A DNA stretch of 64,000 nt from PVC group bacterium (GTDB lineage Bacteria > Omnitrophota > Gorgyraeia > B26-G9). This document shows, piece by piece, positions 3,615-60,979 of the stretch. Where the stretch lies: contig JAAEQR010000003.1 of assembly GCA_024231215.1 (NCBI GenBank), positions 22,660 to 86,659 on the forward strand, written 5' to 3'. Made by a program: the position numbers and the translations under genes. Positions within the stretch are counted from its first letter, which is position 1, and each line of letters opens with the position of its first letter. A model generated the notes under the pieces. The model did no database searches. It saw only the letters and a program-made list of their open reading frames with translations, and was not told the origin of the DNA.

Positions 3615-5096
3615 ATGAAAATCAATTCTATAAAATTTAAAATCTGCGTGCTTTATGTTGGCATATTAGGGCTGATATTGATTTCCTACCGGGGGTTGCT
3701 GTATTACAATTTATACCAAACATTATATCGAGACTCCGATAAACAGTTGATTGCAAAAGTCCGGGAAGTTCATAAAACTCTACGAATTTTTACGGTTCCA
3801 TTCGCAGAATCTAAAAGAGCTGTGATTTTTGGGGCACGAAAAATAATGGGTGTGAACGTAAACTTTCCCGATGAAGAAAAAATGAAAAAATCAGTTGCCG
3901 GATGGGAAAATAGAAGGATGCTGCTGGGGCTGAATCGGGATTATATTAATTTTTTAGATGAAAATGGGAAAACAGTAGTTAGTTCTCCGAATGTTGACCG
4001 AGGCTTAGCTAAGTTTTTGGAAGGATATGTAAGTAAAAAACCCGGCAAGAAGTCATTTTACAATATTGTTTATAAAGAAAGTTTAAATTTAAGAATTATT
4101 GTTCTGCCGGTGAATTTTGGAAAACTGGGCCGCTATACCATCCAGGTAGGAATATCTACCGATCCTATAATCTATATCTTACGCGAGCGCATTAATAAAA
4201 GTGCGATGAGTATCCCCCTGATTCTACTTCTTGCGGTTATTATCAGCTATTTTTTTGTCGGGCAGATTTTAAAGCCGGTAAAGCAACTTACAAAAATTGC
4301 GAATGATATTTCTCGCGGTAATTTAACAGCAAGAGTAAAAGTAGAGAATGTCGACGCAGAAATGAAATATCTTGCTGAATCTTTTAATGATATGTTGTCA
4401 CGTTTAGAGAAGGCTTTTACTTATGCGGGAGAATTTAGTTCATATATAGCACATGAATTAAGAACCCCTCTGACTATAATTAAAGGAGAGACAGAAGTTG
4501 CTTTAAAAACTGTCAGAAGTTTTGAAGAATGTACTAGTGTAATGGAATCGAATTTACAGGAAGTTGATAAGATTCTTGAAATCATTGACCATTTGTTATT
4601 ACTCTCAGATATTAATTTTCGCAAAGAGGCGGTAGGAGTTGAGCCATTAGATATATTAGAATTCATCAATGATATCAAAGAAAAAGCAGTACTGCTTGCC
4701 GTGCAAAAAGATATTAGTATGAAGTTTGATGTGCCGCAGGATAAAATTATGATCATGGCAAATGAAATGGAATTAAGACGATTGTTGCTTAATCTTATAG
4801 ATAATGCAATTAAGTTTACCCCCTTAAAAGGGACCATTGACCTGAGTGTTAAATGTGAGAATAAAAAAGTGTTTATTGCTATTCGTGATTCAGGTGTTGG
4901 TATTAACTCAGAAGAAATTTCCAAGATATTCAATAAATCATACCGTTCTGCTCAAGCTGAAGGAAATGCTAAGACAGGCAGCGGCTTGGGGCTGGCTATT
5001 GCACAATCTATTGCTAGAATGCACCAGGGGCATATTGAAGTGAAAAGTGTGCCTATGCAAGGCGCTGTATTCACTGTAATATTACCTATCCTCTAA
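3615..5096 (+). CDS. Sensor histidine kinase (2 TM, HAMP, HisKA, HATPase_c)
   Basis: H-box FSSYIAHELRTPL, N-box LLLNLIDNAIKFT, G1 IRDSGVGI and G2 GSGLGLAIA. The start is 2 nt after the response-regulator stop. Confidence 0.9.
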   Translation: MKINSIKFKICVLYVGILGLILISYRGLLYYNLYQTLYRDSDKQLIAKVREVHKTLRIFTVPFAESKRAVIFGARKIMGVNVNFPDEEKMKKSVAGWENRRMLLGLNRDYINFLDENGKTVVSSPNVDRGLAKFLEGYVSKKPGKKSFYNIVYKESLNLRIIVLPVNFGKLGRYTIQVGISTDPIIYILRERINKSAMSIPLILLLAVIISYFFVGQILKPVKQLTKIANDISRGNLTARVKVENVDAEMKYLAESFNDMLSRLEKAFTYAGEFSSYIAHELRTPLTIIKGETEVALKTVRSFEECTSVMESNLQEVDKILEIIDHLLLLSDINFRKEAVGVEPLDILEFINDIKEKAVLLAVQKDISMKFDVPQDKIMIMANEMELRRLLLNLIDNAIKFTPLKGTIDLSVKCENKKVFIAIRDSGVGINSEEISKIFNKSYRSAQAEGNAKTGSGLGLAIAQSIARMHQGHIEVKSVPMQGAVFTVILPIL

Positions 5097-5230: not shown

Positions 5231-7768
5231 ATGGAAATAAGATATATTAAACAAGTTATTTTAGTTTTAGGAATGATAATGTGTGTGTGCGGTATCGTAA
5301 GAGATTGTACTGTTTTTGCTGCTAATCTAATGCTACCTGATAACTATTCATTTGAGATCATTATTAACCAATTTGATGACGAGGCTCCTATAGTGCAAGG
5401 GTGTGTTCCGGAAGTAAATGCCGCAGATGTTCCTCGTTCTACAAATATTCAAATGAATATTATCGATGGCAGCTCCGCAGTAGATATCAATTCCATAGAC
5501 CTTGAGGTGAACGGGGTTACAATTATTAATAATGGGATTACACAGATGTATCAGGATATTAACGGTGATATGCTTGCGTATGCGGCGGAGATCATCGAGA
5601 AAACTCCTAATGAATATATACTGATGTATGATCCAGAGGAATATCTTAATTATGAAGAAGATATTATAGTTAGTATAAGTGCAACTGATTTCGAGGGGAA
5701 TGTTCTTAATGGATACAGCTATGCTTTTAGAACGCAAAATTTCATGACCGGTTCATTTACTTCATTTGGCAGTGGCGGGACATTTGATTTTTCGATTGAA
5801 GGAGTGGAAGTGCAGACTGCGTTAACGCAATCTCTACAGGGGAATTCGTTTGTGAAAACTTCAAAGGACGGAAAATGTGTTTTTATTTGCTGGGAGCAGT
5901 TTTCTGTGAACGGGGTCTGGAATATTTACTGTGCGCGGTCAACTGATTTTGGTAAGAGTTTTGAAATGCCAGTTATGGTAAATCCTGCAGCAGTAGAATC
6001 AGAACAACGTTTTCCTGCGCTAGCGATTGATAGTGCAGATAATGTGTATATTTCCTGGCAGCAGAGATCATTGCTAGGAGATTGGGATATTTATATCTCG
6101 AAGATGGATAGTAGTGAAAGTGTGTTTGGTGATAGCTATTGTGTTTATGAAGATTTTGGGGGATCGGATCAAATCCATCCGTCAATTGCAGTTGGTCCGG
6201 CATTAACGGGGGATGGCAATCCTGCGACTTTAGAACCAGCTACTGTATATGTAGTATGGGTAGAAGATAATGGAACTGTTACGCAGATTTTTTATAACCG
6301 GACGACTGCAAATTATGGTGATCTTTGGTATGAGTTTGTACCTGTTAGCATCCGGGTGGATGATTATCGAGGGACGCAAATGCCGGCTGATCCGGAAATA
6401 AAAATAGATGACAGCGGTAGGACTTTTGTGGCTTGGAGAGGTGCAAATACCAATGATACATCGAGTCTATATTTCGATTATGCGAGTGCGATTCCCATAG
6501 ATGGCGGGGAGAGTTTTGGGTATGATGTGAGAGTTACTAGTGAGACTGCCGAAAATATTGGGGTGGATATAGCAGTATCATCTGATGGCAATAATGTTTA
6601 TCTGGTTTGGAAAGAATTAAAACAAGGGCTGAGCCGGCTTAAATTTTCTTATTACCGCTATAGTGGTTGGCGGTATGTGTTAACAGCGGATAGATATGTT
6701 AATGCTAATGCTTTAAATAATGAGGACTTGGGAGATTATGCGTTATCTATAGATAATGGTCGAGATGTATCGGTGGTATGGAGCGAGGTACGCTCAGGTA
6801 ACCGGAAGATTTGTATGGCCGGGGCATCATACAATAGTTATCAATTTTCTGAATATACCGCGCTTAGCACTCCCGGAGAACAGAAAAATCCTTCTGTGTC
6901 CATGGATGAAAATGGCGGACATTATTATGTTAGTTGGACGGATAATAGTAATGGCTATGATGCGATTTATTTTTGTCGGAATACATTTATAGTAACTGAT
7001 GAGATTACTTCTCAAAAAATAGAAAATGATATTGGTGGAACAATTACGGTTGATAGCGGAGCAATTGCCGGAACTATCCTTGATGTCCCAGCAGACGCAA
7101 TTGAAGCACCGATTACGATTACAATAACCGAAGTGGTGGGAGCCCCGGATGCTACGGCTGGTCTTATAAGGGTGGGTAGTGTCATTGATGTTGGGCCAGG
7201 GCAAACATTTTTTAATCTCCCGGCAAAAATAGAGATTCCTTATAAAGAAAATGATTTTATTGTCTCCGGCGTAAGTGATGAATTTTCTTTGCAGATTTAT
7301 TATTATAATATTGGTAAACTCTCTTGGGAAATCTTGCCTGGGAATTTGGTAGATATAGATAATAATAGTATTGCGGGTAATATATCTAATCTGTCGATGT
7401 ATATGATCGCCGGAGCCGATGCAGAGCAAATTCCGGATCCGAGTCCTCCTCCGTTACCGGATGATGGGCCTCCTCAGGGTGGAGAAGATAGTGAGAATAA
7501 CGGCAACGGCAATGGCGGAGGCGGTGGAGGAGGTTGTTTTATTGCGACCGCAGCGTTTGGAACAAAAATGGAGAATGAAGTGATCATCCTGTGCGAGTTT
7601 AGAGACCGCTATTTACTGACTAATGTACAGGGGAAGAAGTTTGTTAGAGAGTATTACCGATATAGTCCTCCGATGGCTGATTATATTGCGCAGCATGACG
7701 GATTAAGAGCAGTGAGTAGAGTTTACTTGACCCCTTTAGTGTTTTTAGCTAGAATGGTTTGTCAGTAG
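5231..7768 (+). CDS. Large secreted protein: signal peptide, Ig-like region, BNR/Asp-box-like beta-propeller repeats, Pro/Gly-rich linker, and a C-terminal CFIATAAFG module
   Basis: Repeated blade-like strings ([60 protein letters not shown]). Then [44 protein letters not shown] followed by [21 protein letters not shown]. Confidence 0.7.
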
Positions 7769-7804
7769 CATGTTGGCGTGAACCTACACATAAAGGTTAA
7801 TTAT

Positions 7805-8275
7805 ATGAAAAACTCTCAGAAAATAATGATATGGTTTCTTCCTGTAATTGTTATTGGTGGGCTATTTAATCCTTTGCTTGGTTATTTAGTCTTGGCAATG
7901 ATGGTGTTTTTATTAATCATGTCTTTTTTTAAAGGGCGATACTGGTGTTGGAATCTATGTCCCAGAGGTGCTTTTTTAGATATTGTATTATCGAAAGTTA
8001 GTGCTAAAAAGCCTTTGCCTAGGCTTGTCACAAAGCAATGGTTTCGCTGGATAATATTTGTTTTATTTATGAGTTTTTTGACGGTTCGAATTATTAGTAC
8101 CGGTGGAAATTACATTGCCATAGGTTTAGTTTTTGTGGTGATGTGCACAATAACAACTGTTATCTCAATTGTTATCGGTGTTGCCACAAAGCATAGGGGA
8201 TGGTGTATGATATGTCCCATGGGAACTCTTCAGGAGAAAATTCATAAAATAAATCAATCTTCCAAAAAACAATAA
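7805..8275 (+). CDS. Polytopic membrane protein with two C-x-x-x-C-P motifs (NapH/MauN-like 4Fe-4S-binding family)
   Basis: RYWCWNLCPRGAF and RGWCMICPMGTL motifs with 4 hydrophobic helices. I prefer the ATG at 7805 over the GTG at 7778. Confidence 0.6.
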   Translation: MKNSQKIMIWFLPVIVIGGLFNPLLGYLVLAMMVFLLIMSFFKGRYWCWNLCPRGAFLDIVLSKVSAKKPLPRLVTKQWFRWIIFVLFMSFLTVRIISTGGNYIAIGLVFVVMCTITTVISIVIGVATKHRGWCMICPMGTLQEKIHKINQSSKKQ

Positions 8276-8382: not shown

Positions 8383-9204
8383 TTGAAATTGGATATAATG
8401 TTAGAAGAAAAATTTGAAAAATTGAAGTCAATGCTAGCTTCGATGCAAAGCATCTTGATTGCATACTCCGGAGGGGTGGATAGTGCATTTTTGCTTAAAG
8501 CTGCGTCTTTAGTTGTTCCTGATAGTATTATGGCGGTAACTGCGGAATCTCCAACATATCCTTCCGGGGAAAAAGATAATGCGAAAGAAATTGCAAATAA
8601 TCTGGGTATCAGGCATATTTTAGTGAAGATTGATGAACTGGCTAATCCGGATTTTGTGAAAAATAATAAGGATCGGTGTTATTGGTGCAAAAAAGAGCTT
8701 TTTACAAAGTTCCTCGATATTGCTAAAGAGGAAAATTTAAAATATGTAGTCGAGGCAAGTAATTATGACGATACATTTGATTATCGTCCGGGGCTTAAGG
8801 CAGTAAAAGAGTTAGAGATAAGAAGCCCATTGATTGATCTGAAATTTACCAAGGATGAAATCAGGGAGGTGTCTAAATCGCTAGGGCTTTCAACGTGGAG
8901 TAAGCCTTCCATGGCTTGCCTATCTTCTCGATTTCCTTACGGAACGAAAATAACAGAAGAAGCTCTTAATCGTATAGACAAAGCGGAGATGTTTTTAAGG
9001 CAGGAAGGGTTTTCTCAGGTCAGGGTCCGACATTATGATGATCTGGCGCGAATTGAAGTTCCGGAAGAAGAATTGCCTAAATTACTGCAGGAACAGACAA
9101 GAAAGAAGATAATAGCTGAATTTAAAAAATTCGGATATGTTTATGTGACGATTGATATAGAAGGATATAGAAGTGGTAGTATGAATTTGGTGGATATGGG
9201 ATGA
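8383..9204 (+). CDS. larE: PP-loop ATP pyrophosphatase of the LarE (sulfur transferase) family
   Basis: SGGVDS PP-loop, CYWCK, and SMACLSSRFPYG near the C-terminal half. The start could be the TTG at 8383 or the ATG at 8398. Confidence 0.7.
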   Translation: MKLDIMLEEKFEKLKSMLASMQSILIAYSGGVDSAFLLKAASLVVPDSIMAVTAESPTYPSGEKDNAKEIANNLGIRHILVKIDELANPDFVKNNKDRCYWCKKELFTKFLDIAKEENLKYVVEASNYDDTFDYRPGLKAVKELEIRSPLIDLKFTKDEIREVSKSLGLSTWSKPSMACLSSRFPYGTKITEEALNRIDKAEMFLRQEGFSQVRVRHYDDLARIEVPEEELPKLLQEQTRKKIIAEFKKFGYVYVTIDIEGYRSGSMNLVDMG

Positions 9205-9252
9205 TGTCCTAAGACGCGATATGTCGCGTCTCTACGTATTGGATGATTGGGT

Positions 9253-10302
9253 ATGAAGAAAAAGGTTTTAGTAGCTATGAGCGGAGGAGTTGATTCTTCG
9301 GTAGCTGCTTTTTTATTAAAAGAGCAGGGATATGATATTGCCGGAGTAACCATGTGTCTTGGCATCTCTGATTCCGGCGATAGTTCCAGAGCCCAGTGCT
9401 GTGGAGTAGAAGCTATTGAGGATTCAAAGACTGTGTGTCGGAAGCTTGATATGCCTCATTATGTATTAAATTTTGCAAATGAATTAGAAGAATTTGTAAT
9501 TAAAAATTTTATTGATAATTACAAAAAAGGATATACTCCCAATCCATGTATTCGATGCAATCAATTTCTTAAATTTGAGAAGCTTTTTAACTATGCTAAA
9601 ACGCTGGGTTTTGATTATCTGGCCACAGGGCATTACGCAAAAATCATAAATTTAAATGAGCAGTATTATTTAAAACGTTCTAAAGACAAAAAGAAGGACC
9701 AGACGTATTTCCTATATTGCATAAAAAAAGATCAATTACAATCGATTCTTTTTCCGTTAGCCGATTATATGAAAGACCAAGTGCGCACCATTGCCAAAGA
9801 TGCTAACTTACCGGTTGCCGAAAAACCGGAAAGTCAGGATATTTGTTTTGTTAATGAAACAAATTATAAGGATTTCATTAAAAAACGTATTGGATTGCAG
9901 GAAGAAGGAGATATTGTCGATAAAAACGGGACGGTTTTAGGGAAACATAAGGGGATCATTAATTATACAAAAGGACAGCGTAAAGGCCTGGGAATAGCAA
10001 CCGGAAAACCATCGTATGTTATTGGAATTGATGCGGCGAAAAATCAGATTATTCTTGGAGACCGAGATGATCTCCTTCAAAAAAATCTTATTGCTTCAGA
10101 TATTAATCTTTTACTTGATGCTTTCCCGCAAAAAGGGAGCGCGCAGATAAGATATGCTCATCAGGAAGCGGATTGCAGTCTTGAATATAAGGATAATATA
10201 TTAAATGTTTCTTTTGATAACGCGCAAGACGCGGTAACTCCCGGGCAGGCAGTCGTGGTATATGATCATGAAACAGTTGTCGGTGGTGGTGTTATACAAT
10301 GA
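9253..10302 (+). CDS. mnmA: tRNA 2-thiouridine(34) synthase MnmA
   Basis: VAMSGGVDSSVAA PP-loop, NPCIRCN, ATGHYA and KDQTYFL motifs. Confidence 0.95.
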   Translation: MKKKVLVAMSGGVDSSVAAFLLKEQGYDIAGVTMCLGISDSGDSSRAQCCGVEAIEDSKTVCRKLDMPHYVLNFANELEEFVIKNFIDNYKKGYTPNPCIRCNQFLKFEKLFNYAKTLGFDYLATGHYAKIINLNEQYYLKRSKDKKKDQTYFLYCIKKDQLQSILFPLADYMKDQVRTIAKDANLPVAEKPESQDICFVNETNYKDFIKKRIGLQEEGDIVDKNGTVLGKHKGIINYTKGQRKGLGIATGKPSYVIGIDAAKNQIILGDRDDLLQKNLIASDINLLLDAFPQKGSAQIRYAHQEADCSLEYKDNILNVSFDNAQDAVTPGQAVVVYDHETVVGGGVIQ

Positions 10303-14123: not shown

Positions 14124-14486
14124 CTAATCACTGGTGACGATATCGATGGTGTTGGTTATTACTTTGCCGGCAGAATCTACTCCTTCTACCATTCCGTCGA
14201 TTACGCCTCTGGTTTCTCCTGCCGGCGCGCTCCAGACAGCGAACAATTTTTTTATCAGCCAGCCGTTTTTTTCCGGTTTTTCATTTCCGTAAACTTCGTA
14301 TCTATATATTTCTTTTATATTGTGCGGGCCTTTTATGAAAATGCCTTTTAGCGGTGCAAGGGGTATATTAATGAGGTTTTTTCCTATGTTTATGAGATGA
14401 TGCCGCGTTGAAAAAGCATATACCGGCTGTCCGGCTGTTGTGATTAATAAGATTAACATAATCCAGATACTAATTATTTTGCGCAT
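14124..14486 (-). CDS. Small exported hypothetical protein (120 aa)
   Basis: Signal peptide MRKIISIWIMLILLITTAGQPVYA. Its start overlaps the stop of the upstream phosphatase gene by 17 nt, suggesting an operon. Confidence 0.5.
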   Translation of the reverse strand: MRKIISIWIMLILLITTAGQPVYAFSTRHHLINIGKNLINIPLAPLKGIFIKGPHNIKEIYRYEVYGNEKPEKNGWLIKKLFAVWSAPAGETRGVIDGMVEGVDSAGKVITNTIDIVTSD

Positions 14487-15051
14487 TGATTAATTCCCTG
14501 GCTTTTTCAAAGTAAATAGTTTTATCTTTAAGTTGGTGAATGAAATTTTTCAGTTCAGGCGTTTCTCCGTAATAAGGCCAGAAACCGTATTTCTTTGCTT
14601 CTTGATAGCCCTGTTGTATGGTCATGCCGCAGGCAACCACACGGTACATTGCGATCATGACGCCGGTGCGGTCTTTACCTCCCGGGCAATATACGAAGAT
14701 TGGCTGATTGTTTTTAGTTAAAACTAATTCCAAGAACTTAAGTACTGTCCGGTCGTCCGGCCGCTGGTATAAAGTCATCGGAAGATGGTAAAATTTTATA
14801 CCTAAAGCCTTGGCTGTTTTTTGCTCTTGCAATGAATTTTCCTTATTATTTTTCAGGCTTATAACTGTTTTTATGCCAATTGTTTGTAATTTTTCCCAAC
14901 CCTGTTCATTGGGCACACTTCCTCGATAGAATTTTTCGTCAACCTGATGGAAGTTCGGAATATCGCCGCTTTGTTTAATAAAAGGCGCTAATTCAGCACA
15001 GCCCAAGAGCAAAAATAGGCTTATAATTAATAATGCGATATATTTTTTCAT
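14470..15051 (-). CDS. Lipoprotein, protein-tyrosine/dual-specificity phosphatase family
   Basis: Lipobox LLLGC. CX5R active-site loop VYCPGGKDRTG. I prefer the ATG at 15051, which has a GAGGGGA Shine-Dalgarno sequence, over 15078. Confidence 0.75.
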   Translation of the reverse strand: MKKYIALLIISLFLLLGCAELAPFIKQSGDIPNFHQVDEKFYRGSVPNEQGWEKLQTIGIKTVISLKNNKENSLQEQKTAKALGIKFYHLPMTLYQRPDDRTVLKFLELVLTKNNQPIFVYCPGGKDRTGVMIAMYRVVACGMTIQQGYQEAKKYGFWPYYGETPELKNFIHQLKDKTIYFEKARELINAQNN

Positions 15052-15175
15052 AATCCCCTCTAATATAAAGTATATCATATTTTTGGAAAAACAGCAGGGA
15101 TTGGTATAGTTTTGTTATAATATATCTGAGAACATAAAGCATTGTAGTATATGAAGTTGCAATAAAACATAAAAG

Positions 15176-15251: not shown

Positions 15252-16244
15252 ATGATTTTACAAAAAAACATAAGATTGATTAGTTATTGTACATTATTTT
15301 TGCTTTATTTAGTTTTTCTAAGTCCGGTTTATGCTTTTGAAAATAGTATTTCTAGAGGAAGTGCTGATAACATGCTAAGTCCACAGATACAGATCAGCCA
15401 TAAGGCGGTAAGATCTGAGATTATTGATATGGTTGCATTTGCTAAGAGTAATAATGTTTTCAATAAGTTTACTCCAATATTGTTTTGGCAAGTTAAGATT
15501 CTTAAAAAATTCGGAATGCAATCAGAGCAAAGCAGAACAGCCTCGTTGATAAGAAAGATAAATAAAGCATATGCAATTAAGGGTAACGTAGGAGGACGTA
15601 AAAGAAAGCACATGGATTTGACCTACTCTGATTTCAACTGGATATTTTCTCAAGCATTACTAAATGATCAGGTTACTAATGAGAAGCTGGAAGCAATTAT
15701 TAATTTGGGGCTTAATATTAAGCATAACTGGAATTGCCTGAGATATAATGTTCAGCTTTGTGATGCTTTTGATCCAGGGCCATCGACATTTGCTATAAGT
15801 GATACCAGAGAGCTTTTACTTGCTTGTGTCAAGTTTGCAAGCGATTTTTCTGATGAAGATTTTTTTGCTGTGATGAATTTTTTTGAGACGGTTGTGTCTG
15901 AGGGGTATGAGATGCATTATGCCCTAAGCATGGCCAAAGAGATTGATGCTCAGAAAGGATTGAATTCTGCTGGGTTTAGTGCTTATGCGGTTGAGGTATC
16001 TAAAGTTCTAAAGATAATGAAAGACGAGCAATATAACCGAGAGACAATAGAGGTTCGCTCAATAGTAAGCAGCCTGATTGAAGCTGTAAGTAAAGGGAGA
16101 ACATTGCGTATAGTAGAAAGTAAAAAAATACCAAAGAGAAGCTTTCTCAGCTCAGAAATTAATATGCTAGACACTTCTTCGTTTTATCGTCAGGGAATAT
16201 CTATTGAAAGTGTGGATACTAGTCTAGTAGAATATGCTATTTAA
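15252..16244 (+). CDS. Hypothetical exported protein, distal member of the leader / L-S-P box / ..YAI-COOH family
   Basis: Signal peptide ..LVFLSPVYA, then MLSPQIQIS. The C-terminus is SLVEYAI. GGGAGGA Shine-Dalgarno sequence. Confidence 0.8.
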   Translation: MILQKNIRLISYCTLFLLYLVFLSPVYAFENSISRGSADNMLSPQIQISHKAVRSEIIDMVAFAKSNNVFNKFTPILFWQVKILKKFGMQSEQSRTASLIRKINKAYAIKGNVGGRKRKHMDLTYSDFNWIFSQALLNDQVTNEKLEAIINLGLNIKHNWNCLRYNVQLCDAFDPGPSTFAISDTRELLLACVKFASDFSDEDFFAVMNFFETVVSEGYEMHYALSMAKEIDAQKGLNSAGFSAYAVEVSKVLKIMKDEQYNRETIEVRSIVSSLIEAVSKGRTLRIVESKKIPKRSFLSSEINMLDTSSFYRQGISIESVDTSLVEYAI

Positions 16245-28207: not shown

Positions 28208-29371
28208 GTGAAATATATGAAAACTTATAAAACAAAAATATATGATTTATCATTTGGCGGTGCCGGAGTTGGCAAGGTTGACGGTAAGGTGTGTTTTGTC
28301 CGCGGGGCTTTGCCGGAAGAAGAAGTTGTTTTTAACGTCGAGAAAGAGACCTCGAGCTATATTAAAGGTTTGGTTATTGAATTGCTTAATACTTCTTCTG
28401 ATCGCATCGAACCAAAATGTAAATATTATAATGTTTGCGGGGGATGTCAATACCAGCATCTTACCTATGAAAAAGAAATTTTCTATAAAAAACTGCAAGT
28501 TGAAGATTTAGTTCGAAGGTTTGGCGGCATCAATGATTTTAAAACCGAAATTATAGCTTCAAAAGATCCTTATGAGTATCGTAGTAGTATTACCTTGCAT
28601 AAGGCGGATAAAGGGTATGGGTTTTGTCGGTATAATTCAAATGAAATTATAGGAATAGATCAGTGTTCAATAGCATCTAAGAGTATAAATAAGTTATTGC
28701 CCATAGCCGGCGAAGGAGCGCAGAAAGATAGATTGACATTGAAGGAAGATTGTAGCGGAAGGGTTTGGCGTTCTGATAGAAAAGAAGATAAGTTTTTCAC
28801 GGATACATATGCAGATAAGGATATGGTTTTTTCTCCTCGCATATTTTCACAGTGCAATCGCTATATTGCCTTAAAAATAGCCGAAGAGTTGAAGGGATGG
28901 ATTCAGGAGACAGATAATGATTCAGCATTTTTTGATATGTATTGCGGTGCGGGATTTTTTTCGTTTCTTCTGCCGGATTTTGTTTTAAAAGTGGGAATGG
29001 ATTATGAAGGTATTGCTATTGACTGCGCAAAAAAAACATTGAAAAATGTTGGGTTTAAAAACCACAGGTTTTATAAAGGTGATGTGGATAGATTGTTCAA
29101 ATCTGTTTTCAATCGCAATAAAAAAGCTAAAAACATTTTACTTTTAGACCCGCCGCGTAAAGGATTGAGCAAAAATCTCATCAAAATATTAACAGCTATG
29201 AATGATATCGATGCGTTCTATTATGTGTCCTGCGATCCTTCTACATTAGCTAGGGATATAAAACTGTTATGTTCTGGTAGTTGTTGGCAGCTTGAAAGGT
29301 TTAAGGTTTTTGATATGTTTCCCCGTACATATCATGTGGAGTGCTTGGCAGAGTTTAAGCGTGGTGAATAG
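28208..29371 (+). CDS. TRAM-domain 23S rRNA (uracil-5-)-methyltransferase, RlmD/RumA family
   Basis: CGGCQYQH Fe-S cluster motif, a SAM fold (DMYCGAGFF, LLLDPPRKG), and the catalytic YVSCDPSTLARD. Confidence 0.85.
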   Translation: MKYMKTYKTKIYDLSFGGAGVGKVDGKVCFVRGALPEEEVVFNVEKETSSYIKGLVIELLNTSSDRIEPKCKYYNVCGGCQYQHLTYEKEIFYKKLQVEDLVRRFGGINDFKTEIIASKDPYEYRSSITLHKADKGYGFCRYNSNEIIGIDQCSIASKSINKLLPIAGEGAQKDRLTLKEDCSGRVWRSDRKEDKFFTDTYADKDMVFSPRIFSQCNRYIALKIAEELKGWIQETDNDSAFFDMYCGAGFFSFLLPDFVLKVGMDYEGIAIDCAKKTLKNVGFKNHRFYKGDVDRLFKSVFNRNKKAKNILLLDPPRKGLSKNLIKILTAMNDIDAFYYVSCDPSTLARDIKLLCSGSCWQLERFKVFDMFPRTYHVECLAEFKRGE

Positions 29372-29568
29372 GGGAGTGTTTTTTTAGGTATTGTAAAATA
29401 AAATGTTGTATTTTCGCCCAGTATTGATTCTACCCAAATTGTTCCTTTGTGCATTTGCACGATTTTTTTTACGATGGCAAGGCCTGCTCCGGTGCCTTCA
29501 GAATTCTTACGTTTTTCAAGCCTTTGGAAAATCTCAAATATTTTTGCAATTCTCGGATCATTTTGCAT
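29332..29568 (-). pseudogene. Remnant of a sensor histidine kinase (only the extreme C-terminal HATPase_c G2-box part)
   Basis: The 78-aa ORF contains GTGAGLAIVKKIVQMHKGTIWVES..GTTFYFTIP. An in-frame stop lies 30 nt upstream, there is no H-box or N-box region, and the ORF overlaps the convergent methyltransferase 3' end. Confidence 0.6.
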
Positions 29569-29892
29569 TTCATGTATCGCATTTTTTCTGGAAAGTTTTT
29601 AGCCAATTCAATGCTTCTTCTTCTGCAGTAAACATTAAATCAGACCAATATATCAAGATGTAACTTAGTATATACTGATGATTGTATCATAAGATATAAT
29701 TGGGTGCAATATTATTTCATATAGAGTTAAATATTAATATAATCTTAAAAAATCTTATAAACTTAGTAAAATTGAATTGGGCGTTACGATCAACAAAAGA
29801 AAGGTTGAAAGTTTTCAGTAAATGAAGTAACATATAAAAATAACTCTTATTTGTTCTTAGTTGCCGGGAAAAAAGGAAAATCTGACGATATA

Positions 29893-30852
29893 ATGGAGAG
29901 ATTAGTAAATACCCAAAGTGGAAAGCATAGCTTGGTTGGTCGAAGTAATTCGATGCTGACTGTCTATGAACTAATAGAAAAAATTTCTCCGGTTGATGTC
30001 GGGGTCTTATTGATCGGGGAGAGTGGAACGGGTAAAGAGTTGGCAGCACATGCAATACATGGTAAAAGCGCACGAAAAGATATGCCGTTTGTTGCTGTAA
30101 ACTGTGCTGCGATTCCGGATACTTTAGCGGAAAGTGAATTGTTTGGACATGAAAAAGGGGCGTTTACCGGTGCGCAGGCAAAACGCAAGGGGAAGTTTGA
30201 ACTTGCGGATAAGGGTACTTTGTTTTTAGATGAGATCGGGGATATGAGCCTTGAAGCACAGTCCAAGATGCTTAGGATACTTGAAGAAAAGAAGTTGGAG
30301 ACGGTTGGGGGAGAGCAGAGTATTTTAGTAGATATCCGAATTATTGCCGCTTCAAACAAAGATCTTCTTCAAAAAGTAAAAGAGAGAACATTTCGGTCGG
30401 ATCTCTATTACCGACTGAATGAAATGAGAATAGACCTGCCTCCGCTAAGAGAAAGAAAAGAAGATATCTCGTTGCTGGTAAAGCATTTCATTGAGTTGTT
30501 TAATCAAGATTTTAACAAAAAAGTAAAAGGGGTTTCTGATACTGCTTTAAGTTATCTTATTAAACATAGTTGGCCTGGTAATGTTCGGGAATTGAAAAAC
30601 GTGATTAAAAGGGCAATTGCTTTAATGGAATCAGAAGTCATTTGGCTGGAGCATCTGCCGTTTGAGGTAAGGTTGCAGGCAAAAGATTATCTTAAAGACG
30701 ATTTCTCCTTGAAACAGATAGAAAGGTGTCATATTGCCGCGATATTAAATAAAACGAAATGGAACAAGAAAATGGCGGCAATGATTCTTGAAATTTCGAG
30801 GCCAAGATTAGATCGTAAAATAAAAGAGTATAATTTGACGGAGGGTAAGTAA
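29893..30852 (+). CDS. Sigma54-dependent transcriptional activator lacking any N-terminal sensor or receiver domain (AAA+ plus Fis-type HTH only)
   Basis: GESGTGKE Walker A, GAFTGA loop (EKGAFTGAQ), DEIGDM Walker B, and a C-terminal HTH (KKMAAMILEISRPRLDRKIKEY). The AAA+ domain begins about 15 aa after the ATG at 29893. Confidence 0.85.
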   Translation: MERLVNTQSGKHSLVGRSNSMLTVYELIEKISPVDVGVLLIGESGTGKELAAHAIHGKSARKDMPFVAVNCAAIPDTLAESELFGHEKGAFTGAQAKRKGKFELADKGTLFLDEIGDMSLEAQSKMLRILEEKKLETVGGEQSILVDIRIIAASNKDLLQKVKERTFRSDLYYRLNEMRIDLPPLRERKEDISLLVKHFIELFNQDFNKKVKGVSDTALSYLIKHSWPGNVRELKNVIKRAIALMESEVIWLEHLPFEVRLQAKDYLKDDFSLKQIERCHIAAILNKTKWNKKMAAMILEISRPRLDRKIKEYNLTEGK

Positions 30853-31266
30853 GTGATTAAAAAAATAAGTATAGGTAGAGAGATTTGTGTGAGTGTTTTA
30901 AATGAAGTTGGCGTATTATCCCGGACAACTTCATTTTTAGTAAATAATGGTATAAATTTAGAGGCGGTTACCGGTTACGCGAGGAATATAGGAGAACCAG
31001 CTGAACTTATGTTTGTAACTAATGATAACCTGGCGGCAATTGATATATTGACTGAAGCTGGATATGATTCTGTGGAGGAAAACGATGTGCTTGTCGTGGA
31101 ACTTGAAAATACTCCGGGAGCATTAAAGAATATTTCTGTGCTTTTATCTCAGAACGGACTAAATATTATATATATATATGGAACTACTTGTAACAAAGGA
31201 TGTCCGGCCAAGATTATTTTAGCAACATCGGATAATCGTCGGGCTCTGGCGTTGCTGAAGAGTTAG
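30853..31266 (+). CDS. Stand-alone tandem ACT-domain protein
   Basis: Two ACT-like units (ICVSVLNEVGVLSRTTSFLVNNGINL.. and VLVVELENTPGALKNISVLLSQNGLNI..). The GTG start directly follows the activator's stop codon. Confidence 0.65.
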   Translation: MIKKISIGREICVSVLNEVGVLSRTTSFLVNNGINLEAVTGYARNIGEPAELMFVTNDNLAAIDILTEAGYDSVEENDVLVVELENTPGALKNISVLLSQNGLNIIYIYGTTCNKGCPAKIILATSDNRRALALLKS

Positions 31267-31352
31267 AATCGGCTTGAAAATAAAAGATTGTAGTAGTATT
31301 ATAAATATTGTTAATAGATAATGTTTTTTTATAACAAGAAAGGGGGCAGTAC

Positions 31353-32825
31353 ATGAGGAAGGGACGGTATGTTGTTGTCGTTGCGGTAGCGGTTGCTTTG
31401 TTGTTGGCAGGGACTCAGTCAGCTTGGGCGCTGGACAGATTTTTAATTGGAGCACGCGGCGCAGGGATGGCTGGAGCTAATGTAGCGTGTGTAAATGATA
31501 CAACCGCGCAGTATTATAATCCGGCGGCGTTTGGTTTTATGGTTGAAGAAAGAAAAAAAGATACTGATCCGGGTAATTTTGCATGGGATACTAATATGGG
31601 GCTTGGATATCGTGTCCATGAAAATCTGGGAAAACTTTTGGATGATTTATCTAAAATAGATATTACGGAATTGGGTGCAAATGATATTCAGAACGAAACA
31701 GATTTGCAGAACTTGACTAAGGCGGCTGAGTTTATTAGCCGGCTTGATGATAAGGGAAACGCGATTAGTGTGGATGGCAATGCCGGCACAGGTGTTCGGA
31801 TAAATAATTTCGCGATCGGGGTGCGTGCTATGTATCAGGCTAGCGCAAGAGTTGCCACTGTTGATATAGCCAATCTGGGAATTGGAGTTAATATTGCTGG
31901 ACTAAATACTGATATTAATGCTGTTACATTAACGGGCGATGATGGACTGACATCTCTTTTCACCGGAGCGCAGGTAACACAGCTGACAACCGCAGGTTTA
32001 AATGCGGCTTCGATTCAACAGCTTGATTTCGCGGCAAGGCAAGCAGGGGTTAGTAGCGGGTCTACTGAATTACAACAGGCAGTTGACATGCTTGGTAGCG
32101 TTGCTACGGCAACAGCCAGTGCAACTGGTGGAGAAATTGAAAATAACACCACCAGCGCTGTATTAGAAGGATTTGGAGTGTATGAGATCCCGATTTCTTA
32201 CGGACGTGCCTTGAATGAGCATGTATCTATTGGTGGAAATCTGAAAATAATGAAGGGTAAAGTCTACGGGACCGAGATGATTGTTTTTAAAAATGATTCC
32301 GGCGATATTATGAAGGAAGCGGATGAAAATTATAAAGAGACTACGACTTTTGGTTTAGACCTGGGTGTAATGGCTAAATACGGAAAATTTAGCTACGGGC
32401 TTGTTGGCCGCAATTTAAATTCTCCAAAATTTGACGGGCCTACGGTTAATGCCAGAGTGTTCAATGATGTCACTATTGATCCTCAGGTTACTGCGGGTGT
32501 GGCATATCTTCCGTGGAACGGGTTGGTCTTAGAGTGTGATTATGATCTGACCAAGAGTGAAACAGGGTTGCCGGGATATGATACAAAGAACCTGTCTTTA
32601 GGTGTGGAATGGATGCTTATGCGGATTCTTTCTTTACGTGGTGGTATGTATGATAACATGGAAGAAAGCGATATCGGTTGGGTATATACAGCTGGTGTTG
32701 GTATAAATCTGCCATGGGTAAGCCTGGAAGTAGCCGGGGCGATGTCTTCTGATAAAAGTGATTATGACGGAGATAGTATTCCAGAAGAAAGTCGTGTTAC
32801 TGCACAGCTGAGCATTGGGTTTTAA
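31353..32825 (+). CDS. Outer-membrane beta-barrel protein, TraF_2/PorV/FadL-like
   Basis: Signal peptide ..TQSAWA, N-terminal GARGAGMAGANVACVNDTTAQYYNPAAFG, alternating beta-strand patterns, and a terminal ..AQLSIGF. Confidence 0.7.
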   Translation: MRKGRYVVVVAVAVALLLAGTQSAWALDRFLIGARGAGMAGANVACVNDTTAQYYNPAAFGFMVEERKKDTDPGNFAWDTNMGLGYRVHENLGKLLDDLSKIDITELGANDIQNETDLQNLTKAAEFISRLDDKGNAISVDGNAGTGVRINNFAIGVRAMYQASARVATVDIANLGIGVNIAGLNTDINAVTLTGDDGLTSLFTGAQVTQLTTAGLNAASIQQLDFAARQAGVSSGSTELQQAVDMLGSVATATASATGGEIENNTTSAVLEGFGVYEIPISYGRALNEHVSIGGNLKIMKGKVYGTEMIVFKNDSGDIMKEADENYKETTTFGLDLGVMAKYGKFSYGLVGRNLNSPKFDGPTVNARVFNDVTIDPQVTAGVAYLPWNGLVLECDYDLTKSETGLPGYDTKNLSLGVEWMLMRILSLRGGMYDNMEESDIGWVYTAGVGINLPWVSLEVAGAMSSDKSDYDGDSIPEESRVTAQLSIGF

Positions 32826-38861: not shown

Positions 38862-41800
38862 ATGGGTATCAATAAGAAATACCTATATCTAAGAATTATT
38901 GCATGTATTCTAATACAGGCGGTTTTGTTTGGTAACAGCGGCTTGATCGGAGTAGTGCGCGCAGAAAACTTCCTGTCGCCGGTTTTAGAAATAAATAATA
39001 AGCTGGTTAAGACTTCGTTTGAAACTCCTCAGGTAAAAAGTCGTCGTTTTGTTCATAATCTGGATGATTTATCAAAACTTTCCCGCCGCAAAAGAGATGA
39101 TCTCGAAATAAATGTTCTTAAAAGAATTAGAAATATTAATCTCAAAGGTTTTAATTTTTTATCAAGGGAGGAGCAGGAGAATTTCATTTTTGTTGATTTG
39201 GACTTTGCGGAGTATGTGTTAAAGACTATCTTTACCGATAAGATTAAAGAGGACATGTCTCAGAAGAACGTATCTTATGAAATCATAACAAGGATTATAG
39301 TAGACATGTTTATTCTTTTAAACAAGGTGTTAGAACAACAAGAAGGACAGGATAATACCTATATCGCATGCACTAATTATACTTTTTCTAAAGATAGAAA
39401 AGGACAGACATATGTACTCACGGTTAATTTTGAGAAAAAAGGAGTGGAAGCTAAAATATCAAAATTTATAGCCGAAGAAATTGATGCAGAAATGCCGAAT
39501 ATTGTCTCAGTGTCCGGGCCGATAGAAAAAATCACTGGAAATAAAAGTATAGATGTTAGTTTTTACGGGGTTTCAAAAAATAACAAAGTGCTTACCCCAT
39601 CGGAAATAACCCGAGCAGTGAAGAAGCTGCCGCCGAACGCAGAGAATATAGATATTTCGGAATTAAGAATTGCGCATAAAAGATTACTTAATTTGGCCAG
39701 AGATCGTTACGAAAAACAGGATATTTTAAAAGAAATAACCCCAGCCATAGAGAGGAAAATAAAAACAGGTATTGTTGCGGAAGGGACATCTTCTTTTACC
39801 CCGATTACTGAGAAGGCTTTTGTGGGAAAGATTATTTGCGCGGAAGTGGTAGAAAAAGAGAAAAAGCCGACATATCCTTTAGTTTCATATTATTCGGAAA
39901 CATTGAGGAAAGATCTGAGATTATTAGATAATGCTATAAATACGGCTATGTATAAGTATGAAGGTATAGATATTAATACGGTTCATCATTTTTTGCAGGA
40001 TGCCTTTGCGTTTGCAAGACATGATTCTCGGGAAACACGCAAGGCTCCGACAGCTCAATTTTTATCGCATCTTATGGATGAGCGGAAGGCAGTGCGGGTT
40101 AGAATTCGAAAGGAATTATTGGAGATTATTACATATACGCCGATGTTAAATAAAGACAATGAGCCAAGAGAGATTTCGGAAATCATGGAGGAAGAGCTAG
40201 CTGAGTTAGCGGAACTGCAAGATTACGAAGACAATATGTATATCTGGGGAGAACTGAACAGGCTTAATCAAGAGGATTTGCTATGGGATAACATCATGTC
40301 TCAAGCAAATGAAATTGTGGGTAATATATATCAATATATAGAAGGAGTGGACCCTGAACCTAAAAATGAAAAAGAGCAGATGGCTTTAGATGCGATTGAA
40401 AATGCGAGGAAGGCAGTCCCAACAGATACTCAAATTGGGTCTATGGTCGATACTGTATTACAAGATCTGCCGCGGCAGTTATTTGCCTGGTTAAGAAAAT
40501 ATGATTGTTCTTTACATGAGGCGTTTTTTCGGTCTATGCAACCTATTGTAGACCAGTTAGTTCAAGCTCAAGAACATACGTCGCAAATGAAAGGAGGGCT
40601 TTCTTTAAATCTCCATACCGAACTTTGTACTTTTGTGGATACTGTATTGTTGGAACTGGGAGAGTATGAATCGCGGCATGTAGTGGTACATAATGACTCG
40701 GAGAAGGAGCCATTTATATTATATGTGCCGGGAGACCTAGGAGGGCCGGAGGAATATTTGCGTTTTCGGCGTCTTTATCCGAATATGGTAGGGATTGTAG
40801 TTAAAGAAGGAGCTAAACATTATGCGGTAATGGCCGGAGATCACGGATTCCCGGTGATTAATAAAATTGATTTAATTGAAATGAGCGAAGGAAAATTGCC
40901 GTTAGAGCTGGTGTTAAAAAAGAAAACTAATGGAATTATGCGTATTAGCAGGGGAGGGAAAGCGTTTTTATATATAAACCCTTCATTGAGGGATACCCTT
41001 GAGGCGGAAACTATTATAAAAACAGCGCAGGCAATTAAAATATTGTGTGAAGCTAATATAGATTTAGAAGGAGAAGATGGGAAATTAAAGACGTATGATG
41101 GAGTAGAAGCGCCTGAGATAATGATGAATTTGGATATTGCCGAAGATGCGGAAGACTTGCCGAGCCGGGTAATACGGAAAATAGGTCTTTATCGTACAGA
41201 ATATGAGTATGAACGTCATGGAGAGTTAACAGAAGAAGCATGGTATAAAATTTTTAAGAAAATTGTTAAAGATTCAGAGGGCGATTTTATCGCTGTACGT
41301 TTACCGGATAGAAAAGTATCCGGAGAAGGTGGGGATATAAAAAATCCTAAAGCTTTTGGAAAAAGTAATCTTGAAGGACTTGATTTTTTGCTTGATGAAA
41401 GAGCTAAGGGCAGGCGAATCTCAACGATAATATTAAGGGCCCTTATGAGAGTATATGCAGAAGACGGAGTCGTAGGTGCTCTTTTTCCCATGGTTTCGCA
41501 AGAAAGAGCCGAAGGAATAATCGACTTTGTCGAAGAAATAAAAGAGAATTTAATCTTTGAACAAAAAAATAAAAATAAGCGGGAAGCTTTGGAAGAGGCG
41601 TTAGACAGCTTTTCCGTGGGAGCGATGTTTGAAACTCCTCAGGCTTTTGAATTTAAAAAAGAGCTTATGGAGATTTTTGATTTTGTAAGTTGGGGGAGTA
41701 ATGACTGGAAGATGGCTTCTTCCGGGAAGTCAAGAGGTGCTCAGGGAACGACCAAAGAATTGATTTCATTTACGCCTGAGGTTGTAAAAACCGCATTAGC

Positions 41801-42191
41801 GGCAGGTAAGATGAGCAGGAAGAAGGAAGTACCTTTTTCTATCTGTGGTAAGCTTGCGTCTACCCCTGAATTCATTCTATTTTCACTATATGCAAAGTCG
41901 TTGTCGCTTTTTGATATCCGACTAAGCGTTGGTAAAGATTCTATAGCGTACGTCAAAGAATTTATTCGCCATGTCGATACTAGACGCATTAAAGATATCT
42001 TTAATGATTATCGAAAAGGTTATGATCAGAATAAATTTGATGAGAAAATAGCAGATGAAATAGAAAACATAGTGCTTTCTATGGGAGAATTAGCCAAGCC
42101 TTTTCTACAGGGACAAGTTAAGATGTCGTTACAGAAGAAAAGGGGGCAGGCATCGAAGGCTCCTGTGTTAGTGCATGAGTATGCAATATAA
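38862..42191 (+). CDS. Tagged-family member 3: 1109-aa protein whose C-terminal half resembles PEP-utilising enzymes (swivel His-domain plus TIM barrel, PtsI/PPDK-like)
   Basis: GAKHYAVMAGDHGFPVI (compare GGxTSHAAIxARxxGIPAV), GLYRTEYEY (compare GLFRTEFL), LFPMVS, VGAMFETPQAF, FVSWGSNDW (compare SIGTNDL) and FSICGKLAS (compare CGEMAG). Leader ILIQAVLF, FLSPVLEIN box, C-terminus LVHEYAI. Confidence 0.8.
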   Translation: MGINKKYLYLRIIACILIQAVLFGNSGLIGVVRAENFLSPVLEINNKLVKTSFETPQVKSRRFVHNLDDLSKLSRRKRDDLEINVLKRIRNINLKGFNFLSREEQENFIFVDLDFAEYVLKTIFTDKIKEDMSQKNVSYEIITRIIVDMFILLNKVLEQQEGQDNTYIACTNYTFSKDRKGQTYVLTVNFEKKGVEAKISKFIAEEIDAEMPNIVSVSGPIEKITGNKSIDVSFYGVSKNNKVLTPSEITRAVKKLPPNAENIDISELRIAHKRLLNLARDRYEKQDILKEITPAIERKIKTGIVAEGTSSFTPITEKAFVGKIICAEVVEKEKKPTYPLVSYYSETLRKDLRLLDNAINTAMYKYEGIDINTVHHFLQDAFAFARHDSRETRKAPTAQFLSHLMDERKAVRVRIRKELLEIITYTPMLNKDNEPREISEIMEEELAELAELQDYEDNMYIWGELNRLNQEDLLWDNIMSQANEIVGNIYQYIEGVDPEPKNEKEQMALDAIENARKAVPTDTQIGSMVDTVLQDLPRQLFAWLRKYDCSLHEAFFRSMQPIVDQLVQAQEHTSQMKGGLSLNLHTELCTFVDTVLLELGEYESRHVVVHNDSEKEPFILYVPGDLGGPEEYLRFRRLYPNMVGIVVKEGAKHYAVMAGDHGFPVINKIDLIEMSEGKLPLELVLKKKTNGIMRISRGGKAFLYINPSLRDTLEAETIIKTAQAIKILCEANIDLEGEDGKLKTYDGVEAPEIMMNLDIAEDAEDLPSRVIRKIGLYRTEYEYERHGELTEEAWYKIFKKIVKDSEGDFIAVRLPDRKVSGEGGDIKNPKAFGKSNLEGLDFLLDERAKGRRISTIILRALMRVYAEDGVVGALFPMVSQERAEGIIDFVEEIKENLIFEQKNKNKREALEEALDSFSVGAMFETPQAFEFKKELMEIFDFVSWGSNDWKMASSGKSRGAQGTTKELISFTPEVVKTALAAGKMSRKKEVPFSICGKLASTPEFILFSLYAKSLSLFDIRLSVGKDSIAYVKEFIRHVDTRRIKDIFNDYRKGYDQNKFDEKIADEIENIVLSMGELAKPFLQGQVKMSLQKKRGQASKAPVLVHEYAI

Positions 42192-60891: not shown

Positions 60892-60979
60892 ATTTTTTTA
60901 AGTAGGTGGCTTTTTGTCTCTAATCAAAACATAAAGAGGTCCGTAGGGACCTGTTATTTTTTTATAAGGAGGGAAATAG

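Follow-up and report, generated by a model that had tools for sequence, protein, structure and literature searches.

An insertion probably placed a sensor-less sigma54 activator directly upstream of a conserved ACT-pair gene in an Omnitrophota genome

The locus described here lies within a 64,000-nucleotide stretch of an Omnitrophota genome, hereafter the window. It opens with a gene for an RlmD/TrmA-like TRAM-domain RNA uracil-5 methyltransferase (28208-29371, plus strand), recognized by the Pfam families tRNA_U5-meth_tr and TRAM. A 78-amino-acid (aa) histidine-kinase remnant follows on the minus strand (29332-29568), with the last 15 codons of its reading frame overlapping the 3′ end of the methyltransferase gene. 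Beyond an AT-rich spacer (29569-29892, 26% GC) lie three plus-strand genes encoding a sigma54 enhancer-binding protein of 319 aa (29893-30852), a stand-alone ACT-pair protein of 137 aa (30853-31266) and, as part of the surroundings, a TraF_2/PorV-like outer-membrane β-barrel protein (31353-32825). Neighbouring genes in the window often overlap or lie no more than 5 nt apart, and Rfam and tRNA scans of it gave no matches.

The initial annotation described the activator as an AAA+ domain with a very short N terminus and a Fis-type helix-turn-helix (HTH), an architecture that holds up under profile searches. Pfam assigns Sigma54_activat (PF00158, 2.4e-70, full profile covered), AAA_lid_14 and HTH_8 (PF02954, 5e-10, residues 287-327 of the 333-aa form), and the translation contains the motifs GESGTGKE, GAFTGA and LFLDEIGDM. 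Walker A and B, the GAFTGA loop and the arginine fingers are intact, there are no frameshifts, and the C terminus is of natural length, ending at the same point as in the closest homologues. The open reading frame runs to 30852 from either a TTG at 29851 or an ATG at 29893, placing the onset of the AAA+ domain at residue 28 or at about residue 14, respectively. The ATG is backed by the NCBI call (P0098, 319 aa) and by the family alignment, leaving an unconserved N terminus of approximately 13 aa and no cis-regulatory domain. The possibility that a more distal start might reveal a receiver or GAF domain is ruled out by an in-frame TGA at 29806-29808 together with stops in every frame of the spacer (29569-29892). 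That spacer probably holds the activator's own promoter, for which TTCATA-16-TATAAT at 29716-29743 is a sigma70-like candidate by consensus match. The composition of the activator gene is host-like (GC 0.40, skew +0.31).

With AAA+, lid and HTH alone, the protein belongs among the domain-minimal sigma54 activators and, as first proposed, matches the PspF/HrpRS type in domain make-up; it is a further, ordinary case of an already known class. Proteins of this type that lack an N-terminal regulatory domain are intrinsically active and controlled in trans (PMC7057263). PspF and HrpR/HrpS likewise combine a sigma54 AAA+ domain with a C-terminal HTH and have virtually no regulatory domain at the N terminus, but the resemblance does not extend further. 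The activator scores well below the cut-offs of the PspF models (TIGR02974, 291.7 bits versus 443.55; NF008622, 251.8 versus 529), and PspF ranks under ZraR, NtrC1/4, NifA and FleQ in its PDB search. Whereas PspF has an adjacent or divergent pspA operon encoding the negative regulator PspA, neither a PspA nor an HrpV-like partner occurs in the window; PspA_IM30 is absent from the window reading frames of at least 150 aa scanned with Pfam, a set that leaves aside two short minus-strand frames at 14124-15078 and a truncated frame at 2-481. HrpR and HrpS are two tandem paralogous activators that form a hetero-hexamer under HrpV/HrpG control, whereas the window has one activator, which in a blastp search against all window reading frames matches only itself.

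By sequence, the activator is nearest to the central domains of ZraR/NtrC-type proteins. ZraR and Aquifex NtrC1 and NtrC4 are the closest relatives of its AAA+, lid and HTH (1OJL, 2.6e-110; 4L4U, 4e-107) and share its catalytic motifs. Unlike the activator, these proteins carry a receiver domain, which is missing from a whole clade of 34 short homologues that group together in a neighbour-joining tree of the top 120 matches. The 29 nearest homologues, at 51-64% identity, are all 304-342 aa long. Since these neighbours are equally short and the 34 short forms fall in a single clade, loss of the receiver must be old. The clade probably descends from NtrC/ZraR-type regulators that lost the domain long ago. 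The gene neighbourhoods of its members are varied.

A second difference from ZraR and NtrC is that no cognate kinase is present at this locus, only a decayed fragment. The remnant matches the HATPase_c profile at positions 53-110 of 111 only (4.8e-13), corresponding to the C-terminal half with the F and G2 boxes, and recognizable kinase homology spans about 29380-29600. Because it lacks the HisKA domain and the N and G1 boxes, and because a stop lies just upstream, where the sequence is decayed and closed in all frames, we regard it as a true kinase remnant, in agreement with the divergent remnant of about 78 aa originally reported. Its GC skew (-0.04) resembles that of other minus-strand genes. 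Derivation from the intact kinase at 3615-5096 was considered and rejected, as the two are only 34% identical.

A decayed kinase beside a receiver-less activator raises the idea of a dying two-component system, in which the rearrangement that destroyed the kinase also took away the receiver of the activator, leaving a newly truncated response regulator in decay. The two adjoin, the remnant lies on an unusual strand, the best structural and sequence relatives of the activator contain receivers, and in one related locus (L006) the activator orthologue is preceded by an intact, divergent kinase gene. Recent decay nevertheless appears highly improbable, given that the nearest homologues and the short-form clade share the length of the activator, that its N terminus lines up with the family start, that catalytic motifs and arginine fingers persist without frameshifts, and that its composition is fully host-like.

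The ACT gene begins with a GTG at 30853, immediately after the TAA of the activator gene and with zero spacing, as the initial annotation had noted, and its Shine-Dalgarno sequence (GGAGGG) lies within the last activator codons. Orthologues likewise begin GTG-ATT (MI-K...). The two ACT domains claimed for the product are confirmed by Pfam (ACT, ACT_AHAS_ss and ACT_8, the 'ACT domain pair'; PF19571, 28.8 bits versus a cut-off of 23.5) and by an AlphaFold2 model with two β-α-β-β-α-β units (pLDDT 92). The protein resembles BT0572 (PDB 2F06; TM-score 0.84, profile E-value 7.5e-10), and a PDB sequence search finds likeness to BT0572 and to aspartokinase β subunits. With BT0572, other ACT_8 proteins and these subunits it shares its size and tandem ACT fold. 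A T-x-C-x3-C-P loop in the second ACT domain (C113, C117), invariant in the Omnitrophota family, distinguishes that family from BT0572. The family is kept across Omnitrophota at 45-76% identity, and we take its members to be conserved stand-alone proteins that presumably bind a small ligand. Neighbour clustering found no conserved partner; the commonest arrangement, in 8 loci, places two T2SSE-type ATPases at +2 and +3.

The initial annotation had suggested that the gene pair may be a split version of TyrR. On this view the sensor-less activator would be controlled in trans by the ACT-pair protein, which would sense an amino acid or another small ligand. In TyrR and PhhR (ACT-PAS-AAA+-HTH), as at this locus, ACT domains accompany a sigma54-type AAA+ domain, and the proposal fits the lack of any cis sensor in the activator, the co-transcription implied by two abutting genes in the same frame with no terminator between them, and the precedent of trans control in domain-minimal activators such as PspF and HrpS (PMC7057263). 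It also gains from residue E96, nearly invariant in the ACT family, being V in the window copy. If the proposal were true, domain-minimal sigma54 activators would gain a new kind of ligand sensor, one that acts in trans. Comparative evidence gives it no support and points instead to rearrangement. No sigma54 activator occurs near the ACT orthologue in any of 49 distinct loci, for which flanking sequence extends at least 1.5 kb upstream in 34 and at least 1.5 kb downstream in 38. Reciprocally, none of 87 activator loci has an ACT pair. A metagenome scan with the activator as the one query returned mostly generic NtrC-type activators (43-56% identity), to the point of saturation, and its use was confined to a negative control for ACT adjacency. 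ACT-AAA+ fusions are absent among the homologues of both proteins, and a TyrR-like linkage is kept in no other genome examined. In contrast to TyrR and PhhR, the domains reside in separate proteins, PAS is missing and the ACT pair is BT0572-like; no TyrR entry appears among its nine PDB sequence matches (E up to 0.1), and the activator falls far short of the TyrR model (NF008085, 245.3 bits versus 576). The ACT gene of the closest relatives, moreover, is monocistronic and follows the methyltransferase gene. Whether conserved or newly evolved in this lineage, such a sensor-activator module is therefore very unlikely.

Gene order in the closest relatives provides an alternative account of the junction. 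The window methyltransferase shares 54-64% identity with its counterpart upstream of the ACT orthologue in L001 and L050-L056, and forms the left anchor of a synteny block comprising abhydrolase, patatin-Omp85, methyltransferase and ACT genes, the first three of which are common to the window and L001. The methyltransferase gene directly precedes the ACT gene in L050-54 (gap about 50-60 bp; ACT identity 75%) and in L055/56 (about 120-130 bp; 72%), and in L001 (64%) a secreted 253-aa gene lies between the two. In all three lineages the ACT gene is monocistronic. A -10-like box of its own lies upstream in L051 (TGGTATAAT) and L055, and a hairpin with a T-run lies downstream in L051 and L001 (two of the three lineages); neither feature is present in the window. 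The conserved methyltransferase-ACT order indicates that the segment of approximately 1.5 kb holding the kinase remnant and the activator is a recent, lineage-specific insertion. We infer the direction of the event, an insertion here rather than parallel losses elsewhere, by parsimony across the three relatives. A repeat search around the insertion revealed no target-site duplication or IS ends. A separate candidate explanation of the junction is readthrough into the ACT leader after loss of the original activator stop, prompted by a match of 14/21 nt with the leader in L051. We rejected it because the activator C terminus ends where those of its closest homologues end; the match lies mainly in the purine-rich Shine-Dalgarno region.

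We therefore favour, with a probability of about 0.75 that also covers the ancient receiver loss, the reading that the activator/ACT adjacency is a side effect of rearrangement in a genome of closely spaced genes rather than a conserved sensor/activator module. According to this proposal, a segment consisting of the divergent decayed kinase tail, the AT-rich promoter region and the activator would have inserted between the methyltransferase and ACT-pair genes and displaced the promoter region of the latter. With that region replaced, the ACT gene would most likely be co-transcribed with the activator and translated from its own Shine-Dalgarno sequence, and its product would act as it does in other Omnitrophota, where no activator is adjacent. 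The activator, like other AAA+ proteins of its kind, would presumably assemble into hexamers, contact an upstream site with its Fis-type HTH and, hydrolysing ATP, open a -24/-12 promoter by means of the GAFTGA loop; we place that promoter outside the window. Having no cis-regulatory domain, it would be intrinsically active, with its output set by the amount made or by a trans factor not revealed by the gene neighbourhood.

Given the zero spacing, the Shine-Dalgarno sequence within the end of the activator gene and the lack of a terminator, co-expression of the pair is now almost certain, and functional partnerships usually begin from co-expression. The insertion may accordingly have created a nascent regulatory operon, in which a phylum-wide ACT-pair protein, co-expressed and possibly translationally coupled, has been recruited as the trans-acting ligand sensor of the activator. 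We rate this outcome as very unlikely; were it correct, TyrR-like logic built from separate parts would have been caught at its origin. Under the favoured reading of a rearrangement by-product, the locus cleanly illustrates how an inserted segment can take the place of a gene's promoter and impose a new co-transcription unit. It also warns against reading functional coupling into a junction of zero nucleotides when the genome is compact. What remains beyond the locus is a clade of sensor-less, NtrC-lineage activators of approximately 320 aa in uncultivated bacteria.

The target of the activator was sought among -24/-12 promoters. The earlier statement that the window holds no convincing TGGCAC-N5-TTGC site proved accurate: no site reaches 5/7 on the score used, and matches with at most two mismatches number 29, against 37.6 expected from shuffled sequence. 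The only -24/-12-like match in the window sited upstream of a gene is GGGCTCTGGCGTTGCT (31241-31256, plus strand), within the 3′ end of the ACT gene and 97 nt before the barrel gene. It could make the barrel gene, together with the associated cluster of C-terminally tagged proteins, the target of the activator. The match retains GG-N10-GC and a perfect TTGCT element, an activator orthologue elsewhere (L007) lies directly upstream of its own probable sigma54 promoter, and comparative work ties sigma54 regulons to the cell exterior (PMC3162934). But its score of 4.5/7 is at chance level, nine sites in the window score as well, mostly within genes, and the GG is absent in relatives. The spacer before the barrel gene also holds a sigma70-like promoter candidate (31274-31302), with no terminator between the ACT and barrel genes. 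Control of the barrel gene and its cluster through this site is thus unlikely.

The window contains no rpoN gene, and six-frame translations of it and of 1.1 Mb of comparison loci contain no RpoN box. A literature search returned no account of sigma54 regulation in Omnitrophota, or of trans control of an activator by an ACT protein. In L007, a perfect -24/-12 site (TGGCACGCTTCTTGCA, 7186-7201) lies between the stop codon of the activator orthologue and the next gene, indicating that the promoter scan works and that members of the family can act locally. The Omnitrophota locus L013 has a well-placed near-consensus -24/-12 site. At the level of sequence, these two predicted sites show that both the phylum and the activator family use sigma54.

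Pfam and motif searches agree with the initial annotation that the sigma54 activator gene (29893–30852, + strand) encodes an AAA+ protein with a minimal N terminus and a Fis-type HTH. The open reading frame (29851/29893–30852) comprises Sigma54_activat (2.4e-70), AAA_lid_14 and HTH_8 and no other domain, with intact catalytic motifs (GESGTGKE, GAFTGA and LFLDEIGDM). Family alignment and NCBI's own call back the ATG at 29893, which yields 319 aa. An in-frame TGA lies upstream (29806–29808) and the spacer at 29569–29892 (26% GC) carries stop codons in all frames, so that shifting the start cannot uncover the receiver or GAF domain that the initial annotation had allowed for. The activator is thus without any cis sensor.

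The nearest 29 homologues (51–64% identity) are all 304–342 aa long, and receiver- or GAF-containing activators appear among the homologues only at 54% identity or below. A neighbour-joining tree built from the top 120 hits places the activator in a 34-terminal clade whose members are all shorter than 345 aa. The short clade and short nearest homologues indicate that the sensor-less form is an established family rather than a fresh truncation, making it highly improbable that the activator was recently truncated as part of a dying two-component system. The divergent histidine kinase next door is indeed a remnant: its reading frame (29332–29568, minus strand) matches HATPase_c only at positions 53–110 of 111, contains no HisKA domain and has decayed sequence upstream, and its tail runs into the 3′ end of an RlmD/TrmA-like methyltransferase gene (28208–29371).

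The central domains nearest to the activator in sequence are those of ZraR, Aquifex NtrC1/NtrC4, NifA and FleQ. PspF ranks well below these, and the activator misses the equivalog cut-offs of both PspF (292 versus 444) and TyrR (245 versus 576). Domain-minimal sigma54 activators are a known kind, to which this protein adds another member; control in trans is established for PspF/PspA and HrpS/HrpV (PMC7057263). The window activator would be intrinsically active, with its output set by its own expression or by a trans factor. Neighbourhoods of its orthologues vary between loci, including a PHP-domain gene (L004/5), an intact divergent kinase with an NtrC-type regulator (L006), a TPR protein (L139) and, beside the closest orthologues (63% identity), an upstream pyruvate phosphate dikinase gene (L137, 2–1729; L138, 2296–5004) whose 3′ end overlaps the activator gene by 4 nt.

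The ACT gene (30853–31266, + strand, 137 aa) starts, as first described, at the codon right after the activator's stop, with a GTG at 30853 directly following the TAA and GGAGGG before it. Its two ACT domains are borne out by Pfam matches (ACT, ACT_AHAS_ss and ACT_8) and by an AlphaFold2 model (pLDDT 92) containing two β-α-β-β-α-β units. The 97 homologues, nearly all annotated Omnitrophota and 45–76% identical, are stand-alone in every case and 132–148 aa long, apart from one 86-aa fragment. BT0572 (PDB 2F06, 'conserved hypothetical protein') gives a full-length profile match (E = 7.5e-10), and its structure superposes on the model with a TM-score of 0.84; aspartokinase regulatory subunits and YdjB are the next-best matches. 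However, BT0572 lacks the T-x-C-x3-C-P loop of the Omnitrophota family, in which Y-x-T-x-C-x3-C-P (C113, C117) is invariant in the alignment. Alignment and model place both cysteines in a β-hairpin loop of the second ACT domain, and this loop may serve in redox chemistry or metal binding. Stand-alone ACT pairs are likewise a known kind, of which this is another member, and TyrR is absent from the nine PDB sequence matches (E up to 0.1).

We assembled 49 distinct ACT loci, 42 loci coming from a one-genome-per-species scan and more from exact look-ups of the closest proteins; of these, 34 reach 1.5 kb or more on the upstream side and 38 do so on the downstream side. By tblastn, none of the 49 contains a sigma54 activator, and none of 87 activator-bearing loci (seven with close orthologues, 80 generic) contains an ACT pair. 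The pairing is not conserved. Clustering of the ACT gene's neighbours revealed no conserved partner, and no ACT–AAA+ fusion occurs among homologues of either protein. These results speak against the earlier suggestion of a split TyrR. A genuine partnership between the two proteins, which would necessarily be young, is very unlikely. The commonest neighbours of ACT orthologues are two tandem T2SSE-type (PilB/PilT-like) ATPase genes at +2/+3, found in eight loci (L003, L009 and six others).

Rearrangement probably brought together an activator and an ACT pair, both of known kinds; we assign this insertion or rearrangement account of the locus as a whole a probability of about 0.75. In the three lineages with the closest ACT proteins, a methyltransferase orthologue closely precedes the ACT gene, with about 50–60 bp between them in L050–54 (75% ACT identity), about 120–130 bp in L055/56 (72%) and one secreted 253-aa gene in L001 (64%). 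Abhydrolase and patatin-Omp85 genes further upstream are also common to L001 and the window, and the ACT genes of the closest relatives start GTG-ATT, as here. In the window, ~1.5 kb (roughly 29372–30852) holding the kinase tail, the AT-rich spacer and the activator separates the two genes. A −10-like box before the ACT gene in L051 (TGGTATAAT) and L055, and a hairpin with T-run after it in L051 and L001, point to a monocistronic gene in these relatives; the window gene has neither element, and no terminator follows it. Parsimoniously read, this gene order suggests that the ~1.5-kb segment was inserted specifically in this lineage and took the place of the ACT gene promoter. Co-transcription of the ACT gene with the activator would then be a side effect of the insertion. 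The host-like composition of the activator (GC 0.40, skew +0.31) implies that the event was an internal move or is old enough for composition to have adjusted. Nor is the zero-nt junction special, since neighbouring genes in the window often overlap or lie no more than 5 nt apart, and two activator orthologues share 4 nt with the gene before them. We rejected the idea that the activator lost its own stop and reads into the ACT leader, as its C terminus ends where those of its closest homologues do. In L001, the closest long contig, two paralogous secreted 253-aa proteins (7203–7964 and 8719–9480), neither with a Pfam match, flank the ACT orthologue, one on each side.

As the initial annotation reported, the window holds no convincing TGGCAC-N5-TTGC promoter: 29 matches with up to two mismatches were observed versus 37.6 expected, and no site reaches 5/7 by a GG-N10-GC-anchored score. 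Only GGGCTCTGGCGTTGCT (31241–31256) is placed upstream of a gene. From it the activator might drive the barrel gene (31353–32825) and the downstream cluster of genes whose products share a C-terminal tail, a proposal compatible with the rearrangement account but unlikely, as the site is one among nine equally weak matches and is not conserved in relatives. The scan does pick up real sites and family members can act on an adjacent gene, as L007 illustrates: a perfect promoter, TGGCACGCTTCTTGCA (7186–7201), lies 30 nt before a prepilin-like N_methyl/FecR gene. On one side of this promoter is a sensor-less activator orthologue (59% identity), on the other an operon made up of the N_methyl/FecR, CHASE2-GGDEF and GAF-HD genes, a likely target of that orthologue. 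Such a promoter has no counterpart in the window, and the window activator's target would lie outside it. A near-consensus −24/−12 site, TGGCACATATATTGCT, occurs in an Omnitrophota MAG (L013, 2394–2409, minus strand), with a 107-aa ORF 51 nt downstream of it, and provides indirect evidence that Omnitrophota use sigma54.

The window has 38% GC and a uniformly strong GC skew (about +0.24 across 1–64000). Strand bias is extreme: almost all genes lie on the + strand, with only the kinase remnant and two real genes (14124–15078) on the minus strand. The outer-membrane β-barrel gene directly upstream of the tagged cluster matches TraF_2 (1.4e-31), with an N terminus matching PorV/PorQ family models; in L013 the ACT gene is followed 2 kb downstream by an orthologue of the barrel gene (70% identity). 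An uninterrupted run of about ten + strand genes (33021–60730) shares an N-terminal hydrophobic 'IIQAFL'-type segment, and their products, some very large (1421, 1109 and 1856 aa), end in similar tails (EMAI, HEYAI, LQAI, NIAI, GMAI, ESAI, EQAV and EQGV) that look like a sorting tag. The product of a distant gene (15252–16244) ends in LVEYAI. Most tail-bearing proteins have no Pfam match, a few matching PAD_porph, PEP-utilizers_C, patatin, DHH or TPR; the PEP-utilizers_C domain, in the 1109-aa protein (38862–42191), may be compared with the pyruvate phosphate dikinase beside the L137 and L138 activator orthologues. A pyruvate:ferredoxin oxidoreductase-like ORF begins at 60979 and continues past the window end.
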